The notes: generated by a model not told the origin, from the letters alone. 14,867 nucleotides of DNA from a virus (IMGVR_UViG_2617270955_000010); one strand, 5' to 3'; positions 3,550 to 11,634 are shown, numbered from the stretch's first letter. A program made the numbers and translations.

Positions 3550-5322
3550 ATGACCATCACCACAGACACCACTCTTTTACACGACCCGCGTCGTCAGGCG
3601 GCGCTGCTGTACTGGCAGGGGTTTTCCGTGCCGCAGATTGCCGCCATGTTGCAGATGAAACGTCCGACGGTGCAGAGCTGGAAACAGCGCGACGGCTGGG
3701 ACAGCGTTGCCCCCATCAGCCGTGTCGAAATGAGTCTGGAAGCGCGACTGACCCAGCTCATCATCAAACCGCAGAAAACCGGCGGTGACTTCAAGGAAAT
3801 TGACCTGCTGGGACGCCAGATTGAACGACTGGCACGGGTAAACCGCTACAGTCAGACCGGCAACGAGGCAGACCTTAATCCGAACGTCGCTAACCGCAAC
3901 AAAGGCGGGCGTCGCAAACCGAAAAAGAATTTTTTCAGTGACGAGGCCATCGAAAAGCTGGAGCAGATTTTCTTTGAGCAGTCTTTCGACTATCAGTTGC
4001 ACTGGTATCGCGCCGGGCTTGAGCACCGCATCCGCGATATCCTGAAATCCCGCCAGATTGGCGCGACGTTTTATTTTTCCCGCGAGGCGCTGCTGCGCGC
4101 CCTGAAAACCGGTCATAACCAGATTTTTCTGTCGGCCAGTAAAACGCAGGCGTATGTGTTCCGCGAATACATCATCGCCTTTGCCCGGCTGGTTGACGTT
4201 GACCTGACCGGTGACCCGATTGTCCTGGGCAATAACGGCGCAAAACTGATTTTTCTCGGCACCAACTCCAACACCGCACAGAGCCATAACGGCGACCTGT
4301 ACGTCGACGAGATTTTCTGGATCCCGAATTTTCAGGTACTGCGTAAGGTGGCATCAGGTATGGCCTCACAGAGTCACCTGCGCTCGACCTATTTCTCCAC
4401 CCCGTCCACGCTGGCGCACGACGCCTACCCGTTCTGGTCGGGTGAACTGTTCAACCGGGGACGCGCCAGCGCCGCCGAACGCGTGGAAATCGACGTCAGT
4501 CATAACGCCCTTGCCGGAGGTCTTCTCTGTGCGGACGGCCAGTGGCGGCAGATTGTCACCATTGAGGACGCCCTGAAAGGCGGCTGCACGCTGTTCGACA
4601 TTGAGCAGCTCAAACGTGAAAACAGCGCCGACGATTTTAAAAACCTGTTCATGTGTGAATTTGTTGACGACAAGGCGTCGGTGTTCCCGTTCGAGGAGCT
4701 GCAACGCTGCATGGTCGACACGCTGGAAGAATGGGAAGACTATGCGCCGTTTGCCGCCAATCCGTTCGGCTCCCGCCCGGTATGGATTGGTTACGACCCG
4801 TCACACCGTGGCGACAGCGCCGGATGCGTGGTACTGGCACCGCCGGTGGTGGCCGGTGGCAAATTCAGAATACTTGAGCGTCACCAGTGGAAAGGCATGG
4901 ACTTTGCCACCCAGGCGGAATCCATCCGCAAACTCACCGAAAAATATAACGTCGAATACATCGGTATTGATGCCACCGGCCTCGGTGTCGGCGTGTTCCA
5001 GCTCGTGCGCTCGTTCTATCCCGCCGCGCGCGATATCCGCTACACACCGGAAATGAAAACCGCAATGGTGCTCAAGGCAAAAGACGTTATCCGTCGTGGC
5101 TGTCTGGAATATGACGTCAGCGCCACCGACATCACCAGCTCGTTTATGGCTATCCGCAAGACCATGACCAGCAGCGGACGCAGCGCCACCTATGAGGCCA
5201 GCCGCAGCGAGGAAGCCAGCCACGCCGACCTCGCCTGGGCGACCATGCACGCCCTGTTAAATGAGCCACTCACCGCCGGTATCAGCACCCCGCTGACATC
5301 CACCATTCTGGAGTTTTACTGA
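3550..5322 (+). CDS. P: P2-type terminase large (ATPase) subunit gpP
   Basis: 590 aa from the ATG at 3550 (MTITTDTTLLHDPRRQAALLYWQGFSVPQIAAM...), preceded by GAGG. The longer ORF from 3520 adds 10 residues. The stop overlaps the Q start (ATGA). Confidence 0.93.
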   Translation: MTITTDTTLLHDPRRQAALLYWQGFSVPQIAAMLQMKRPTVQSWKQRDGWDSVAPISRVEMSLEARLTQLIIKPQKTGGDFKEIDLLGRQIERLARVNRYSQTGNEADLNPNVANRNKGGRRKPKKNFFSDEAIEKLEQIFFEQSFDYQLHWYRAGLEHRIRDILKSRQIGATFYFSREALLRALKTGHNQIFLSASKTQAYVFREYIIAFARLVDVDLTGDPIVLGNNGAKLIFLGTNSNTAQSHNGDLYVDEIFWIPNFQVLRKVASGMASQSHLRSTYFSTPSTLAHDAYPFWSGELFNRGRASAAERVEIDVSHNALAGGLLCADGQWRQIVTIEDALKGGCTLFDIEQLKRENSADDFKNLFMCEFVDDKASVFPFEELQRCMVDTLEEWEDYAPFAANPFGSRPVWIGYDPSHRGDSAGCVVLAPPVVAGGKFRILERHQWKGMDFATQAESIRKLTEKYNVEYIGIDATGLGVGVFQLVRSFYPAARDIRYTPEMKTAMVLKAKDVIRRGCLEYDVSATDITSSFMAIRKTMTSSGRSATYEASRSEEASHADLAWATMHALLNEPLTAGISTPLTSTILEFY

Positions 5323-6356
5323 TGAGCAAGAAAAAAGGGAAAACACCGCAACCTGCGGCAAAAAAAATGACTGCCAGCGCCCCGAAAATGGAGGCATTCA
5401 CCTTTGGTGAGCCGGTGCCGGTGCTCGACCGCCGTGACATTCTGGATTACGTCGAATGCATCAGTAACGGCAGATGGTATGAGCCGCCGGTCAGCTTTAC
5501 CGGTCTGGCAAAAAGCCTGCGTGCTGCCGTGCATCACAGCTCACCGATTTACGTCAAACGTAATATTCTGGCTTCAACGTTTATCCCGCATCCATGGCTT
5601 TCCCAGCAGGATTTCAGCCGCTTTGTGCTGGATTTTCTGGTATTTGGTAATGCATTTCTGGAAAAGCGTTACAGCACCACCGGTAAGGTCATCAGACTGG
5701 AAACCTCACCGGCAAAATATACCCGCCGTGGTGTGGAAGAGGATATTTACTGGTGGGTGCCGTCCTTCAACGAGCCGACAGCCTTCGCGCCCGGCTCCGT
5801 GTTTCACCTGCTGGAGCCGGATATTAATCAGGAGCTGTACGGCCTGCCGGAATATCTCAGCGCCCTTAACTCTGCCTGGCTGAATGAGTCGGCCACGCTG
5901 TTCCGCCGCAAGTATTACGAAAATGGCGCCCATGCCGGATACATCATGTACGTCACCGATGCCGTGCAGGATCGCAACGATATCGAAATGCTTCGCGAAA
6001 ACATGGTTAAGTCGAAAGGCCGCAACAACTTTAAAAATCTGTTTCTCTATGCGCCACAGGGGAAAGCTGACGGCATTAAAATTATCCCCCTCAGTGAAGT
6101 AGCGACGAAGGACGATTTTTTTAATATCAAAAAAGCCAGCGCCACTGACCTGCTGGACGCGCACCGCATCCCCTTTCAGTTGATGGGGGGCAAGCCGGAG
6201 AACGTCGGGTCGCTGGGTGATATTGAGAAAGTGGCAAAGGTCTTTGTCCGCAATGAGCTTATCCCGTTACAGGACAGGATCCGCGAGATAAACGGCTGGC
6301 TCGGTCAGGAGGTCATCCGCTTTAAAAACTACTCACTGGACACCGACAACGGCTGA
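5322..6356 (+). CDS. Q: P2-type portal protein gpQ
   Basis: 344 aa, MSKKKGKTPQPAAKK...; translationally coupled to P; followed by an intrinsic terminator and the cos site, as in P2. Confidence 0.93.
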   Translation: MSKKKGKTPQPAAKKMTASAPKMEAFTFGEPVPVLDRRDILDYVECISNGRWYEPPVSFTGLAKSLRAAVHHSSPIYVKRNILASTFIPHPWLSQQDFSRFVLDFLVFGNAFLEKRYSTTGKVIRLETSPAKYTRRGVEEDIYWWVPSFNEPTAFAPGSVFHLLEPDINQELYGLPEYLSALNSAWLNESATLFRRKYYENGAHAGYIMYVTDAVQDRNDIEMLRENMVKSKGRNNFKNLFLYAPQGKADGIKIIPLSEVATKDDFFNIKKASATDLLDAHRIPFQLMGGKPENVGSLGDIEKVAKVFVRNELIPLQDRIREINGWLGQEVIRFKNYSLDTDNG

Positions 6357-6544: not shown

Positions 6545-6661
6545 CGCCCGCTTCGTGGGACGATTTTAATGCAGTTGCCCGCATTAGCTGAATCCGCGCC
6601 AGAACAGACATTATGGATATGTCAATACGAACTTATTGACGTGCAAAATCATGCAATCAAG

Positions 6662-6694
6662 CGCAAAAAAAAACCGCCTTCAAAGAGGCGGTTT
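6662..6694 (-). terminator. Rho-independent terminator of the cargo operon
   Basis: On the minus strand: a 9-bp stem AAACCGCCT / AGGCGGTTT (6671..6679 and 6686..6694) with a 6-nt loop, followed by a run of about 9 U. It lies 16 nt downstream of the kinase-HIRAN stop codon. Confidence 0.75.
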
Positions 6695-6709
6695 ATGTTA
6701 TCCCATTGA

Positions 6710-8353
6710 TTAAGATCTACATTCAACTAAAAGGTACACTAATGGACGTTCTGGCGTCCCATTCTTCTTTGCAACAAAAGCAGATATTTTGTGTTTTGCT
6801 ATTTTTTGCTTGAGTTTTTTACATAACACTTTGTTTATATAACCAAGTTTCCCGCTCTCATGAACAACAGCTATAGCATGTGGATCAACCGGGTTATCCT
6901 CTTCAGGAACAAGCTTGACCAAATCACCGACCATTACTTTCGACAAATCAAGCCCTTCCTGATAACGAGTTCCTGCCACTTCAAAAAGAAGCTCACCTTC
7001 ACTATTAAGAATTTCTGGATCTGGCACCAAACAAAAACCATCGCCAGGTGATTTTGCTCCTGTATATCCTAACAGCGCAAAATCAGAGCCTTCAAATGGA
7101 TGGGGGAGCAAATGTTGAGCCAGATACTCAGCAAAGTCTTTTCTTTTCCGTGGTGGTAAACGCCGAACAAACGGGTCAAGCACGTTGTTCGTATGTTCTT
7201 CACTTTTCAGACTAAATGCGGGATGTCCTGCAAACCCTTTCTCTTGGGCTTTAGCATAATCTTCTGACTGAAAATGGTATGTGAAGACGTAGTTATCCCC
7301 TTGCTGACGATCAATCTGACCAACAACATAACGAGTACCGCCTGTGGGTGGCTGCCATGTAAGAAGCAACCGAGTAGGCTCCATTATTCTGTTTATAGTA
7401 CGCATATTTAGAATCAGTGATAACCTTAGGTATCTACGCCTCAATAAACGAATCGTCCAATCCGCTCGTTCCCTAGTGAACGGCACATCGGAGCTAATTT
7501 CGCAAAGTGAATCTATCTTGTCGACCAGTTCCTGAAAATCAAATTCAAGTCTCCGGGCCAAGTACGCTTTTGACTGCTCATCAAGAGCCAAATCCTGTAT
7601 AGAAGAAATATGACCTAATCGTTCATGCGTGTCTGCCCGATTCTTCCGCAAATGATGACAACCACGCTGTATGTATTCATCTACATTTTGATGGTTCCAT
7701 CCTCTGATCCTCTCTACATACCTTTCATGCCCCAAACTAGTACCATTATCGAAATATGGTGCGAGATATCCCTTCACTTTAGGTGGCGTTATGCCTGGTG
7801 CAGATTCAGGTACAAAAACAAAACCCCAATTCTCTTGGTGTCTATCACTATTACCGATGAGCGCATCAAAAAGCAGCATATCGTAAAGCCATTGGATCCA
7901 GTCTGGAGAGATCAGGCCGCGGATACTAAAAGCCCTACAAATTAAGCGTAGATCAACAAGGTTATGGTGTCTTCCGGAAGAGTCATCAAAATCCGATATC
8001 AACACATGAAAAAAATCAGACGCATGAACAAATAACTGGCTACTTTGATCGTAAAACCACTCAAGCAAAGCTCCATATTCGTATTCACCGTTCTCCATCA
8101 TTCTTCGCGCTGGCAATGCTTTAGGAACAGGAACGCCCATAACATCTCCAACTATATAAGCAACGGTTTCCATCCAGTACTGATCGGGATAAGCATCTCT
8201 TGAGAGTTTAAAAAGATAAGGCCATTCCGGTTTTATCCCCTCAGGAGCATCATTCGGTGACCAAAGCATTTTTTTATCCCTCGCTCCTCGAGGAAAAATG
8301 CCATGCTCATCATCTTTACGCCAACTAGTTACATCTATTAAATTGATATCCAT
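6710..8353 (-). CDS. HipA-family (HipA_C-like) Ser/Thr kinase core fused to a C-terminal HIRAN domain; candidate defence effector/sensor
   Basis: 547 aa. Kinase motifs: P-loop-like GARDKK (aa 23-28), catalytic loop LIGNSDRHQENWGF (D170/H172/N175; HipA DxHxxN motif), and metal-binding APYFDNGTS (D202; compare HipA AP-YD--S). C-terminal ~93 aa (aa ~455-547), ...AGTRYQEGLDLSKVMVGDLVKLVPEEDNPVDPHAIAVVHESGKLGYINKVL..., fits the HIRAN pattern (G-x-x-Y, L-x-x-E-x-x-N-P-x-D-x-x-A-I, G-Y-I). The start is 9 nt after the exonuclease stop (operon). Domain calls are from motif recognition only. Confidence 0.8.
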   Translation of the reverse strand: MDINLIDVTSWRKDDEHGIFPRGARDKKMLWSPNDAPEGIKPEWPYLFKLSRDAYPDQYWMETVAYIVGDVMGVPVPKALPARRMMENGEYEYGALLEWFYDQSSQLFVHASDFFHVLISDFDDSSGRHHNLVDLRLICRAFSIRGLISPDWIQWLYDMLLFDALIGNSDRHQENWGFVFVPESAPGITPPKVKGYLAPYFDNGTSLGHERYVERIRGWNHQNVDEYIQRGCHHLRKNRADTHERLGHISSIQDLALDEQSKAYLARRLEFDFQELVDKIDSLCEISSDVPFTRERADWTIRLLRRRYLRLSLILNMRTINRIMEPTRLLLTWQPPTGGTRYVVGQIDRQQGDNYVFTYHFQSEDYAKAQEKGFAGHPAFSLKSEEHTNNVLDPFVRRLPPRKRKDFAEYLAQHLLPHPFEGSDFALLGYTGAKSPGDGFCLVPDPEILNSEGELLFEVAGTRYQEGLDLSKVMVGDLVKLVPEEDNPVDPHAIAVVHESGKLGYINKVLCKKLKQKIAKHKISAFVAKKNGTPERPLVYLLVECRS

Positions 8354-8362
8354 ATCTTACGG

Positions 8363-8914
8363 TTACCCAGCTAATGCACGGAAAGCAGCACTAACATAAG
8401 CTACCTGAAACTTTGCATCTCGAAGCGCATGATGCGCATCAGTAACATTAATGGAAAAATTTGCCCTTACATCAATATTCTTAAGGCTTTTAGCTAGTTC
8501 AACGATGGTACGCACGTCTCGATCATTTCGAAAACGCCATGGGATATTTTGCGCATGTTTACGGTAAACCGCTGCCAATATAGCGTTATCAAAGCTTGCC
8601 CCATTCCCCCAAACTTGTACGTCATCGTTACTACGACTTCGTACAAATAGAGAAAATTCTTGTAAGGCTTCATGTAAGTCAACAGCAGACGGGTCATTAA
8701 AAACCGCCCTTGCAGAATCGCTTTGTATCATCCACCACTGTAAAGTTTTTGGGTCTACAAAACTATTTTCCAATGCAGATGATAGGGTTATAACTCTATA
8801 AAACTCATCCCCACACTTGCCAGTCAGAGGCTCAAAGAACACAGCGCCGATTGAAATCAAAGGAGCATCCATTGACACACCTAATGTTTCTATATCGAGC
8901 ATTAAATTATTCAT
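8363..8914 (-). CDS. DexA-like DEDDh 3'-5' exonuclease (DnaQ-fold)
   Basis: 183 aa. Exo I motif LDIETLG (D7, E9); Exo II motif WGNGASFDNAIL (D109); Exo III motif DAHHALRDA (H161-x4-D166). The overall pattern resembles phage T4 DexA (IDFETMG, GMSFDFPIL, HDSIHD). Strong SD GGAGG 5 nt upstream of the ATG. Confidence 0.85.
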   Translation of the reverse strand: MNNLMLDIETLGVSMDAPLISIGAVFFEPLTGKCGDEFYRVITLSSALENSFVDPKTLQWWMIQSDSARAVFNDPSAVDLHEALQEFSLFVRSRSNDDVQVWGNGASFDNAILAAVYRKHAQNIPWRFRNDRDVRTIVELAKSLKNIDVRANFSINVTDAHHALRDAKFQVAYVSAAFRALAG

Positions 8915-9054
8915 TTAACCTCCACCCCAGACATAGCTCAGGGAAACGTAACCTATTGAAATAACGAATCAAGTATTTGTCACATTCTATACTAAAACAT
9001 TCGAATTCCAAAACTTCAGCTTTTGCAACCCCTTACAAGTCAATTGATCCATAA

Positions 9055-9074
9055 TACTGTATACATACACAGTA
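9055..9074. promoter_or_regulatory. Putative LexA (SOS) operator upstream of the cargo operon
   Basis: TACTGTATACATACACAGTA has the CTGT-N8-ACAG pattern with an AT-rich centre and matches the E. coli LexA consensus TACTGTATATATATACAGTA at 18 of 20 positions. It lies 18 bp downstream of the A stop and about 140 bp upstream of the exonuclease ATG on the same transcriptional side. Confidence 0.5.
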
Positions 9075-9092
9075 CTACATTTGAAAAACAAA

Positions 9093-11369
9093 TCAAGGGA
9101 AATCATTAAAACCCGGCCAATCACAACAAGGCGGATAAACAAATTTTTTCATGTCATAAATAACTTCTGCCCCACGAGCCAGCGCCTCAAGCTCCCATCT
9201 CTGAGGCCTGATACCGTTCTGAGCAAGGTCAACGCGGATACGGGTGATTTGCAATCGTTCAGACCGGGTCAGTCTGGCCGATGGTGCAATTTCATGCGGT
9301 TTTAACGGGCTTCCGTTTCTTTGCCGACGATTTGGCGTTCTCAGCCCGTGTTTTAATGCGCCCCTGAGCGCCTTCACGACCTCCGGGTCATTCCATTCGA
9401 TAACACCATCATCAACCAGATTAAGCACTGCTGCGGCGTGCTCAGAAGGTGTGGGAACCGGTAACGAAGTATCACCACCGGTGAGCTTTCCACAGTTATT
9501 GACAGGACTCCGAGGCGCGGCGATGCCGCTTTTTAAAGTCAAAGGCTCAACGACCGGAACTTTCGGCACAATGCGCCAGTCCGTCGTTCTGGTGATATGA
9601 ATATGACGCGCGCCGAGATGCGGCGCGTAAATGCCGACCACTCTCTCGACCTCTTCCTCGTACTCGTTAACGTCATCCGACGGGCTACGGGCGACCCTGA
9701 CAGTCTGACAATCGCGCGGGACATTTGCCCCACCCTGCGCGCTGATATACAGCGCAAAATCGCCACTGTCTGCGGCGGCGCGTGCAGCCTCCACGCGTTC
9801 GTCAAATTCATCAGCAATGCTGACGCCGCGAGGCAATTTACGTAGCTCACGGTAAGCTCCCATTGTCGGCAGGCCAACCGTTTTAAATTGCGGGATGCGC
9901 CACGTTGACGCCCATGCGGTAACAGCCGCGGCAGTATCTTTCAGCGGTCTGCCGGTATCGTTATCGAGCTGACCATCCAGTGCATAGCCGTCGATATTTT
10001 TTGAAATGTATTTCGCGATATATCCCGCAGCACCGCCCCGGTTAAGGTGTTTTGCCTGAAAACGGTTTCGCGCGGCTCCTCTTTCGTCGCCATCCTCTTT
10101 GAGCGCATAGCGACGCATGATTTCGATAATCTGGTTACGCTGGCGTGGATTACAAAAAAGCATCATATGCCAGTGCGGCGTTCCGTCGTGGTGTGGCTCG
10201 ACGACTCGCAAACCGTAGACCTGTAAATCATTATCCTTGAATGCCGTGCGCATCAGGCTCCAGATACGGCAGAGATAACGCTGCGCATCCTTTGGATTAA
10301 ATGCCTCATCATTCCAGCCGTGATTAAGCTGGACGGTTTTATTTTCGCCTTTTCCAACCTGACGTGTCGGGTGATACTTTGACGGCGCGGTAAGCGTGAT
10401 AAACATCCCCACATCACCCTCTGAGGCGGCGTAACGCTCAATACCGGCAATGGTGTTCATCAGCTCCATCCGGCGAATTTCAGGATTAGAAATACTGCCC
10501 ATCACCTTACTGATAAGGTCGATGCGCTCGCCGGTTTCCCTGTTTTCAAGGTCACACGATTTAAGAAATTCCAGATTTGCCTGGCGGCGCGCACGCACAT
10601 CACGAATGGCATGTTTACTGGCATAAGGTGAACGGTCTTTATTGACCTCCCCGACAGCAATCAGTAACGCCTCATGCCAGCGCATACGCTGGCCTTTAAG
10701 CTGACTAATCCACCACTCATCGTTAAACAGGCGGGCAATGGCAGAATATGCCTGCCTCGTGGTCATCTGCCCTTTACGGTATTTTCTCCAGTAAAGCGGG
10801 GAAATATTGAAAGCACGTGCAGCGCCAGCAACATGACCATACAGGTGAGCCTGCGCCTCATCCGTAAACAGCGATTCTTTTTCGCCATGCGCATCCACCC
10901 AGGCATCGCAGAGTTCCCCATACATCATGAAAAGCTGCGATGAGATTCGGGCGGCAAACTTTTTCAGCTCCTTGTCATTCATCCCCGGCAGGCGCGCATA
11001 CTGGTCGCGCTCTGCCAGAAACAGCAACGACGCGTCAGTGTTCATTTCATGGCGCTGATTCACACGCTCAATGCGCGGCCATAAACGACGCTGAAAAGTG
11101 GATGTGAGGAAATAAAACCCGTGCACCGGGCTTTTATTGCGCCGGATGTAGTCATAGCGTGAAGTAAACAGCGAGCGCAAAAAGTAAGGCAGGCGGTTAA
11201 TCATGGATAAAACACCTTGCACCTGACGCATCTCGTCACGTGTAAGGGGTCTTTCGCGCCCGACAGCCTCGCGTGGCGCGTTCCACGCATAAGCACCGGT
11301 AAACGTCTTACCGGTGCCTGCGGCAAATGCTGACGGAGGGACAAAACGCCCGGAGGCTTTAACGGCCAT
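9093..11369 (-). CDS. A: P2-type replication initiation protein gpA (rolling-circle endonuclease)
   Basis: 758 aa from MAVKASGRFVPPSAFAAGTGK..., the N-terminus I recall for P2 gpA. The ORF track extends 14 codons further to 11411, which is a possible alternative start. HUH-like motif TPHWHMMLF and paired catalytic tyrosines GYIAKYISK (Y-x3-Y). Confidence 0.93.
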   Translation of the reverse strand: MAVKASGRFVPPSAFAAGTGKTFTGAYAWNAPREAVGRERPLTRDEMRQVQGVLSMINRLPYFLRSLFTSRYDYIRRNKSPVHGFYFLTSTFQRRLWPRIERVNQRHEMNTDASLLFLAERDQYARLPGMNDKELKKFAARISSQLFMMYGELCDAWVDAHGEKESLFTDEAQAHLYGHVAGAARAFNISPLYWRKYRKGQMTTRQAYSAIARLFNDEWWISQLKGQRMRWHEALLIAVGEVNKDRSPYASKHAIRDVRARRQANLEFLKSCDLENRETGERIDLISKVMGSISNPEIRRMELMNTIAGIERYAASEGDVGMFITLTAPSKYHPTRQVGKGENKTVQLNHGWNDEAFNPKDAQRYLCRIWSLMRTAFKDNDLQVYGLRVVEPHHDGTPHWHMMLFCNPRQRNQIIEIMRRYALKEDGDERGAARNRFQAKHLNRGGAAGYIAKYISKNIDGYALDGQLDNDTGRPLKDTAAAVTAWASTWRIPQFKTVGLPTMGAYRELRKLPRGVSIADEFDERVEAARAAADSGDFALYISAQGGANVPRDCQTVRVARSPSDDVNEYEEEVERVVGIYAPHLGARHIHITRTTDWRIVPKVPVVEPLTLKSGIAAPRSPVNNCGKLTGGDTSLPVPTPSEHAAAVLNLVDDGVIEWNDPEVVKALRGALKHGLRTPNRRQRNGSPLKPHEIAPSARLTRSERLQITRIRVDLAQNGIRPQRWELEALARGAEVIYDMKKFVYPPCCDWPGFNDFP

Positions 11370-11634
11370 ATGAGCCAAAAGCCTCTGAACAACGCTTGCT
11401 GAGTTGCTCAACCTGCGCGTTTAAATCAGCAAAAGACTTTGCGCTTCCGGTCAGAATATCGTGATGCATCAGGCCGGAAACGAGCTGGCTTAATTTCGGG
11501 TAATAACCAACCACCGCCAGCCATTCCTGACCGGCGTTTTTACCGCTTTCAGCTCTCTTTTTCTCGTGGAGAATAAACTGAAAGCTGTCACTGGTAACGA
11601 CATAACGTTCGCCAATTTCAATACGAATACTCAT
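11359..11634 (-). CDS. P2 orf83-like small early protein
   Basis: 91 aa, the same size and position as P2 orf83 immediately upstream of A; overlaps the A start by 11 nt. Confidence 0.75.
   Translation of the reverse strand: MSIRIEIGERYVVTSDSFQFILHEKKRAESGKNAGQEWLAVVGYYPKLSQLVSGLMHHDILTGSAKSFADLNAQVEQLSKRCSEAFGSYGR

Follow-up and report, generated by a model that had tools for sequence, protein, structure and literature searches.

HipA-family kinases, whose targets are tRNA synthetases, include the HipL type, which was described by Gerdes et al. 2021 together with a split form, hipIN, composed of the kinase HipI and the HipS-HIRAN protein HipN (PMC8262856). In that description hipL was called monocistronic, and the HipS-like and HIRAN parts were proposed as regulators of the kinase. 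HIRAN domains bind DNA 3' ends, and those of HipL and HipN keep most of the DNA-binding motifs, the proposal being that HIRAN probably binds ssDNA ends in these proteins (PMC8262856). The hipL/hipIN systems correspond to PDC-M03, which PADLOC holds as a candidate system only and defines by two genes, A and B. A literature search found no experimental work on PDC-M03, on HipL with HIRAN or on an anti-phage HIRAN kinase.

In Gram-positive bacteria, small DEDD exonucleases are coupled to HipA-type kinases and HIRAN on mobile elements. These NrnC-like diDNases of Actinomycetes and Clostridia cleave only DNA dinucleotides, and in one third of the cases studied they adjoin HipA and HIRAN genes (Mortensen et al. 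2025, PMC11706625). They belong to the DEDDy type, with a Tyr in Exo III and the motif HHAxFD(L/I)xF in Exo II (PMC11706625). Among DEDDh enzymes, the structure of DexA of phage T4 was reported by Kang et al. 2025 (PMC12153337), who also reported that an E. coli homologue, EcD, protects on its own against T4 by digesting 5hmC-DNA. In DexA, W152 and D169 are needed for cleavage of T4 DNA and D90 for tetramer formation (PMC12153337); W152 is contributed by the partner subunit and reaches into the active site. Finally, the variable hotspot between gpA and Q of P2-like phages carries tin and old in P2 itself, and defence genes cluster there (PMC9122126). The literature on this hotspot that was searched makes no mention of HIRAN or HipA and refers to an exonuclease only in connection with P2 Old.

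The locus analyzed here lies in a stretch of viral DNA of 14,867 nucleotides (IMGVR_UViG_2617270955_000010, hereafter the window), where the P2 hotspot holds a DexA-like exonuclease gene and, directly downstream, a HipL-type kinase gene (Table 1). The exonuclease adds a new protein to an established family, PF16473/DexA-like, and the exonuclease-HipL module departs from the published descriptions; no mention of such a module in P2 hotspots was found in the literature search.

Table 1. Features of the exonuclease-kinase locus, in window coordinates.
Feature	Position	Strand	Remarks
P2 gpQ portal gene	5322..6356	+	Conserved border of the slot; followed by the cos region
Variable cargo slot of P2-like prophage	6580..9108	.	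Delimited by GC shift and homology break
Intrinsic-terminator-like hairpin and T-run	6671..6694	-	16 nt past the kinase stop; hairpin strong
HipL-type kinase, 547 aa	6710..8353	-	HipA-like core, HipS-like Couple_hipA domain, HIRAN domain
DEDDh 3'-5' exonuclease gene (predicted)	8363..8914	-	183 aa; PF16473 Rv2179c/DexA-like; clade signature R129
R129 codon	8528-8530	-	Clade-signature residue of the exonuclease
Shine-Dalgarno GGAGG	8919..8923	-	Separated from the exonuclease ATG by 4 nt; seen by direct reading of the sequence
Sigma-70 promoter-like TTGGAA-16-TAGAAT	8984..9011	-	Consensus match only
P2 gpA replication endonuclease	9093..11411	-	Conserved border of the slot

Family, fold and signature residue of the exonuclease

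The open reading frame of the exonuclease fills positions 8363-8914 exactly, from an ATG at 8914-8912 to a TAA at 8365-8363. The interval given in an earlier note on this DNA proved exact, but no strand had been given there; the gene lies on the minus strand, and translation of the plus strand over the same interval meets many stops. A Pfam profile search matched the product to PF16473, the Rv2179c-like 3'-5' exoribonuclease domain, with E 6.8e-57 and a score of 192.4 bits (cut-off 27 bits), and the match spans profile positions 1-176 of 177. This was the sole Pfam match of the protein, and no HTH was found beside it, which sets aside a HipB-like type II antitoxin fold. The match runs from end to end and supports the single-domain DEDDh exonuclease that the earlier note had proposed. 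The PHROG family phrog_255 'exonuclease' was also matched (E 1e-62). PADLOC yielded only weak generic DEDDh/exonuclease models for the protein, including the Cas-associated DEDDh at E 9.1e-7, NCBIfam gave only a sub-threshold match (19.7 bits vs 261), and a search of the window against Rfam found nothing.

The earlier note had claimed all five DEDDh catalytic residues. Residues 7, 9, 109, 161 and 166 of the protein are indeed D, E, D, H and D, supplying the D-x-E of Exo I, the D of Exo II and the H-x4-D of Exo III, and D7, E9, D109, H161 and D166 are invariant across 21 homologues as well as throughout the clade of kinase-linked exonucleases described below. Since the catalytic residues do not vary in the kinase-linked clade, the intact active site is under purifying selection there, and enzymatic activity with it. 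An AlphaFold2 (AF2) model built from the 21 homologues reached a mean pLDDT of 91.3 and predicts an RNase H-like alpha/beta fold. All of the best 50 Foldseek matches of this model in the PDB were DEDD exonucleases, headed by the chains of T4 DexA and followed by RNase T, with Cap18, Orn/REXO2 and RNase AS lower in the order. These profile and fold matches rule out a chance open reading frame, and on sequence and model grounds the protein is very probably a catalytically competent DEDDh 3'-5' exonuclease. It is small and processive-looking, with no evident regulatory domain next to the catalytic one.

The resemblance to DexA that the earlier note had pointed out is real. T4 DexA is the best match among solved structures (E 6.6e-10, TM 0.77-0.79), and a phmmer search of PDB sequences returned only 8KEL/8KEN, a 227-aa exodeoxyribonuclease (E 1.7e-5) that the fold search identified as T4 DexA. 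The family alignment pairs D7, E9, D109, H161 and D166 with D7, E9, D119, H186 and D191 of DexA, and the two proteins also share the WW motif and the N(D/Q)RD(V/I)RT motif. The relationship is nonetheless remote: identity to T4 DexA is only 21-24%, a BLASTP comparison with DexA of the T4-like phage JS98 gave 24% over the whole length (E 1e-13), and the window protein has neither the insertions of DexA nor the Trp (W152) that is reported as necessary for recognition of 5hmC-DNA, R129 standing in its place. It was therefore not assigned as a T4 DexA orthologue, given its 183 vs 227 aa, the missing insertions and its place in a P2 cargo slot with a kinase rather than in the dda-dexA region of T4 (and of JS98).

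RNase AS of M. tuberculosis (Rv2179c, 4OKE; Foldseek rank 46) has the same fold and is the namesake of the profile that the window protein matches over its full length, but it is a poly(A)-specific exoribonuclease, and in structure the window protein lies nearer to DexA, a DNase. CBASS Cap18 (7T2S, Foldseek rank 39) and the Cas-associated DEDDh likewise share the fold and are add-ons of defence operons, but the similarity is weak, their partner systems are different and no orthology is implied. The NrnC-like diDNases are DEDDy enzymes specific for dinucleotides, whereas the window enzyme is a DEDDh, DexA-like protein of gammaproteobacterial distribution; a diDNase assignment is ruled out by His161 in Exo III and by an Exo II that reads NGASFDNAIL.

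EcD/HREX, a bacterial prophage-borne DexA homologue of the same family, required closer comparison. The published accession was not found among cluster members, and an EcD-like gene was instead rebuilt from the primers in the supplement of PMC12153337. Its product (189 aa) starts with MIDTETLG, carries A78 and terminates in PFLNI. Compared with the window exonuclease it shows 36% identity; the Trp is retained, and no kinase gene lies close by. In the phmmer alignment A83 of the window exonuclease is aligned with D90 of DexA, so that both the window protein and the dimer-type EcD have Ala at this position. The two differ at the position equivalent to W152, which in the family alignment is occupied by Trp in DexA and EcD-like proteins, as it is in 73% of solo relatives, but by Arg (R129) in 11 of 11 distinct kinase-linked sequences. 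R129 not being Trp, the published residue criterion rules out an EcD-type 5hmC-DNA exonuclease. The stand-alone character of HREX/EcD does not apply either: EcD/HREX is solo, whereas in all loci sampled of the window clade HipL or HipIN follows. The Arg may alter substrate recognition or length preference; more speculatively, it might limit the length of the substrate through contact with a phosphate.

The cargo slot and the kinase partner

The window displays the gene order of a P2-like prophage, with early genes, cox, C and int to the right of the slot and portal Q, terminase P and scaffold O to the left. GC content falls from 52-58% in the prophage backbone to 41-44% in the slot, and homology to other P2-like phages ends at ~6545-6578, past Q and cos, and restarts at 9109, in the 3' end of gpA. 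The slot contains exactly two genes, the exonuclease followed by the 547-aa kinase, and in the sister phage vB_YpM_22 the same slot holds a Fic protein and no exonuclease. Because backbone homology halts at the slot borders and Fic takes the place of the cargo in the sister phage, the exonuclease is not a conserved gene of the P2 backbone.

The promoter-like site upstream of the exonuclease lies in the 178 bp of AT-rich sequence that separate the start of the exonuclease gene from the stop of gpA, and the kinase start lies 9 nt after the exonuclease stop. Together with the ribosome-binding site and the terminator-like hairpin (Table 1), this arrangement supports the reading of exonuclease and kinase as a two-gene cargo operon, closed by the hairpin, and upholds the earlier view of the exonuclease as the first gene of a cargo operon beside a kinase. 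A 51-aa, TTG-initiated open reading frame (8987-9142, minus strand) that overlaps the 3' end of gpA and extends into the promoter spacer is probably spurious.

At the left end of the window, an IS21-family element (1-2388), comprising an IstA-like transposase at 1-1542 that is cut by the window edge and an IstB ATPase at 1554-2303, is inserted about 74 bp inside gpN, the gene for the P2 major capsid protein; from 2389 onward the sequence is collinear with that of an intact prophage of E. coli (L001). Owing to this interruption of gpN the window prophage is probably defective, the cargo operon being intact.

The kinase was recognized by PADLOC as a fusion of PDC-M03A (E 3.8e-31), the N-terminal HipA-like kinase core, and PDC-M03B (E 1e-30), the HipS-like and C-terminal HIRAN part. 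Both defined parts of PDC-M03 are present in this one gene, and the exonuclease is an addition to the system, not a defined component of it. The catalytic-loop and Mg-binding residues of the kinase are invariant in 26 homologues. The protein matches the published HipL architecture, in which the domain order is permuted relative to HipA, with the kinase core first, then the HipS-like N-subdomain and then HIRAN. A phmmer comparison of the HIRAN domain of this kinase with HLTF structures, made to check its 3'-OH-binding residues, gave an insignificant match (E ~1.3-1.5).

Pairing and co-inheritance of exonuclease and kinase

The exact locus was found in 61 of 5,426 complete E. coli genomes, and the exonuclease DNA occurred nowhere else in those genomes; the 61 genomes represent a single allele and hence carry little weight on their own. 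The Yersinia phage GMG73 also carries the locus, with 99.1% identity over 3.6 kb. More divergent exonucleases retain the same neighbour. A HIRAN kinase directly follows the exonucleases with 87% (Serratia), 85% (Proteus) and 58% (a second E. coli allele) identity to the window protein, and pairing was seen down to 46% identity, the paired loci coming from Serratia, Proteus, E. coli, Atlantibacter, Shewanella and metagenomes and including both fused HipL and split hipIN. The spacing between the two genes is as tight in these relatives as in the window, at 4 nt in Proteus and 9 nt and 24 nt elsewhere, with an 11-nt overlap in L173. The pair is not confined to P2 prophages, two loci outside them being L173 (fused kinase, 48% identity, overlapping genes) and L175 (split hipIN, 53% identity, exonuclease 24 nt upstream). 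Antitoxin genes usually occupy a position upstream of, and close to or overlapping, the toxin gene, and this is the gene order observed here, the exonuclease lying immediately upstream of the kinase and abutting or overlapping it.

In Serratia ureilytica (L002/L003) the pair, with products 87-88% identical to the window proteins, adjoins cpxP, and the only phage remnant is Ogr/Delta; it looks as though a P2-like prophage at the cpxP-side attachment region shared with E. coli has decayed here while keeping its cargo. In an E. coli genome with the second allele (L009, 6565-9556) an IS3-family transposase splits the kinase and leaves the exonuclease intact, a natural kinase knockout.

Two samples were used to delimit the association. 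On the kinase side, 80 species-level genome loci were collected via kinase alignment, with up to 6 kb covered on each side. The exonuclease is present in four of them, those of the closest relatives (Serratia, a Pseudomonadota MAG, Atlantibacter and Shewanella), and absent within up to 6 kb on each side from the remaining 76, nearly all of which are split hipIN, although in ~10 of these 76 fewer than 900 bp upstream of the kinase are available and the gene could be off the contig. On the exonuclease side, 80 viral-contig loci were collected via exonuclease alignment, with downstream DNA often limited to 0.3-3.5 kb. A kinase adjoins the exonuclease in only four of these, the best matches (at least 51% identity), and none was detectable in the DNA covered, often 0.3-3.5 kb downstream, for the 76 more distant viral-contig exonucleases. 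A solo relative in the lambdoid phage mEp460 adjoins xis and int. Since most kinase loci and the distant viral exonucleases are unpaired in the DNA covered, the exonuclease qualifies as a lineage-specific accessory.

Split hipIN without an exonuclease is widespread in Beta-, Gamma- and Alphaproteobacteria (L015-L090), and a search of these loci for another conserved nuclease partner found none. About 7-10 of them are flanked, as judged by eye, by type I R-M genes resembling hsdM/hsdS, an arrangement that recalls the abortive-infection genes lying within R-M operons, and these neighbours fit a defence role of the core hipIN system. An Aeromonas prophage HipL with 41% identity also has no exonuclease; this fused gene (L172, 5001-6617) lies between a CI-like repressor and the integrase of a P2/186-like prophage of Aeromonas salmonicida.

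Neighbour-joining trees, which carry no support values, were computed for the exonucleases and for the kinase cores. Among the sampled loci the kinase-linked exonucleases are monophyletic and sister to solo exonucleases. The tree of the kinase cores has the same internal topology and places all exonuclease-bearing kinases in one clade, within which the exonuclease-less kinases of L015/L016 and L017 are nested. In the kinase tree, fusion of the kinase with its HIRAN part has apparently arisen more than once, in the enterobacterial clade, in L173 and in the Aeromonas locus L172. From these sequence comparisons we conclude that a phage-type DexA-like exonuclease was captured about once by a gammaproteobacterial hipIN lineage and then co-inherited with it, and that the A-B fusion creating the enterobacterial HipL fell within this period of co-inheritance. 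Taken as a whole, the exonuclease is probably an accessory dedicated to the HipL/HipIN-HIRAN kinase system and evolving together with it, and neither a backbone gene nor an unrelated neighbour.

Possible roles of the exonuclease in kinase control

Seeing that 76 of 80 kinase loci and the Aeromonas HipL do without it, the exonuclease, though a stable accessory, is dispensable across the wider kinase family and would modulate its core function. Its status as a co-inherited accessory narrows the open list of roles in the earlier note and favours a modulator, be it a signal remover or an antitoxin-like brake, over an indispensable effector. We therefore consider a model in which the exonuclease trims the HIRAN ligand and so sets the activation threshold of the kinase, with a rough probability of 0.4. 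During phage infection, DNA with free 3'-OH ends or in the form of short oligonucleotides would accumulate and be sensed by HIRAN, and its binding would relieve the inhibition exerted in cis by the HipS-like domain; the released kinase would then arrest translation, resulting in abortive infection. In uninfected cells, continuous trimming of the ligand by the exonuclease would hold the kinase off, the exonuclease serving as an enzymatic, antitoxin-like brake with a logic comparable to that of ring nucleases. The kinase would be tripped by any phage that swamps the cell with 3' ends or blocks the exonuclease. The Gram-positive diDNases offer an analogy. Because they are limited to dinucleotides, they cannot serve as genome-degrading effectors and can only clear small DNA species, and their association with HipA and HIRAN genes appears to be an independent, analogous recruitment. 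The more comprehensive proposition makes a catalytically active DexA-like exonuclease the third built-in function of a HIRAN-gated immune system with a HipA-family kinase, a ligand-clearing brake on its sensor of DNA 3' ends or oligonucleotides. Two unrelated DEDD families, DEDDh in Gammaproteobacteria and DEDDy in Gram-positive bacteria, would have been recruited independently to this end; the proposition is advanced tentatively and is more doubtful.

Several observations argue against the ligand-trimming model. A brake is not generally needed, since the majority of hipIN systems do without an exonuclease. The trees carry no support values, and two kinases that lack an exonuclease (L015, L017) are nested in the clade of those that have one. 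The comparison of the HIRAN domain with HLTF did not confirm its 3'-OH-binding residues. The specificity of the brake for DNA is called into question by the namesake of the family, Rv2179c/RNase AS, which is an RNase, and by RNase T as the second-best structural match. Moreover, a 3'-5' exonuclease could equally well create the ligand. In such a scheme the exonuclease would act upstream of the kinase as a signal generator, resecting the 3' ends of incoming or replicating phage DNA or producing limit oligonucleotides that HIRAN recognizes. The co-inheritance data fit this arrangement as well as they fit a brake, the catalytic residues are conserved, and DexA-family enzymes act on both ssDNA and dsDNA (PMC12153337). 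It is nevertheless unlikely: the sensor evidently does not need an exonuclease in the 76 of 80 kinase loci that have none in the DNA covered, 3'-5' resection of duplex ends gives 5' overhangs and recessed 3' ends instead of free 3' ssDNA tails, and the Gram-positive analogue, by turning dinucleotides into mononucleotides, destroys possible ligands and cannot create them.

Alternatively, the gene could encode a defence nuclease of the HREX/EcD type that degrades modified phage DNA, such as 5hmC-DNA, and merely shares the hotspot with HipL. Protection against T4 was reported for EcD alone (PMC12153337), the window protein resembles the dimer-type EcD in having A83 at the D90 position of DexA, and the P2 slot is a place where defence genes cluster (PMC9122126). 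This explanation is rather improbable given that the EcD-like product shares just 36% identity with the window protein and its gene has no kinase beside it, that R129 separates the 11 kinase-linked sequences from EcD and from most solo relatives, and that every sampled member of the clade has an adjoining kinase, spaced by 4-24 nt or overlapping.

We consider it just as improbable that the exonuclease is a co-effector, attacking DNA or RNA 3' ends (e.g. the CCA of tRNA) after the kinase has fired and thereby reinforcing the arrest, possibly under control by phosphorylation or complex formation. A role of this kind would suit a family that includes RNases (Rv2179c/RNase AS) and has RNase T as second-best structural match, the tRNA synthetase targets of HipA-family kinases (PMC8262856), and the accessory DEDDh exonucleases of other defence operons, such as Cap18 and the Cas-associated DEDDh. 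It sits poorly with the many kinase systems that have no exonuclease, with a single-domain enzyme in which no regulatory domain is evident, and with the first-gene position, which is atypical for an effector needing restraint. Lastly, although solo relatives are common lambdoid accessory genes (adjacent to xis and int in mEp460) and T4 DexA serves in DNA scavenging and intron homing, an ordinary DNA-metabolism gene of a P2-like phage, functionally unlinked to the kinase, is very improbable for a gene located inside the variable slot and not in the backbone, replaced by Fic in vB_YpM_22, found only with the kinase in the 61 of 5,426 E. coli genomes carrying the allele, and paired outside P2 prophages as well (L173, L175).

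The association has consequences for how these systems are described. The published account of hipL as monocistronic and the definition of PDC-M03 as a two-gene A + B system are both corrected by a gammaproteobacterial clade that adds an upstream, co-evolving exonuclease. This clade is also distinct from the stand-alone 'HREX' exonucleases, and annotation pipelines should therefore not transfer the HREX function to its members. For the biology of the kinases, the exonuclease partner provides a clue to the trigger of HipL/HipIN, the likely ligand being either a short oligonucleotide or the 3' end of a nucleic acid, at a level set by an enzyme. That an unrelated DEDD nuclease is paired in a like manner in Gram-positive bacteria suggests a general design principle and not a coincidence of the P2 hotspot. 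If the proposed role of the exonuclease as a ligand-clearing brake is true, it would constitute a new logic for abortive infection, 'nuclease-buffered DNA-end sensing'.
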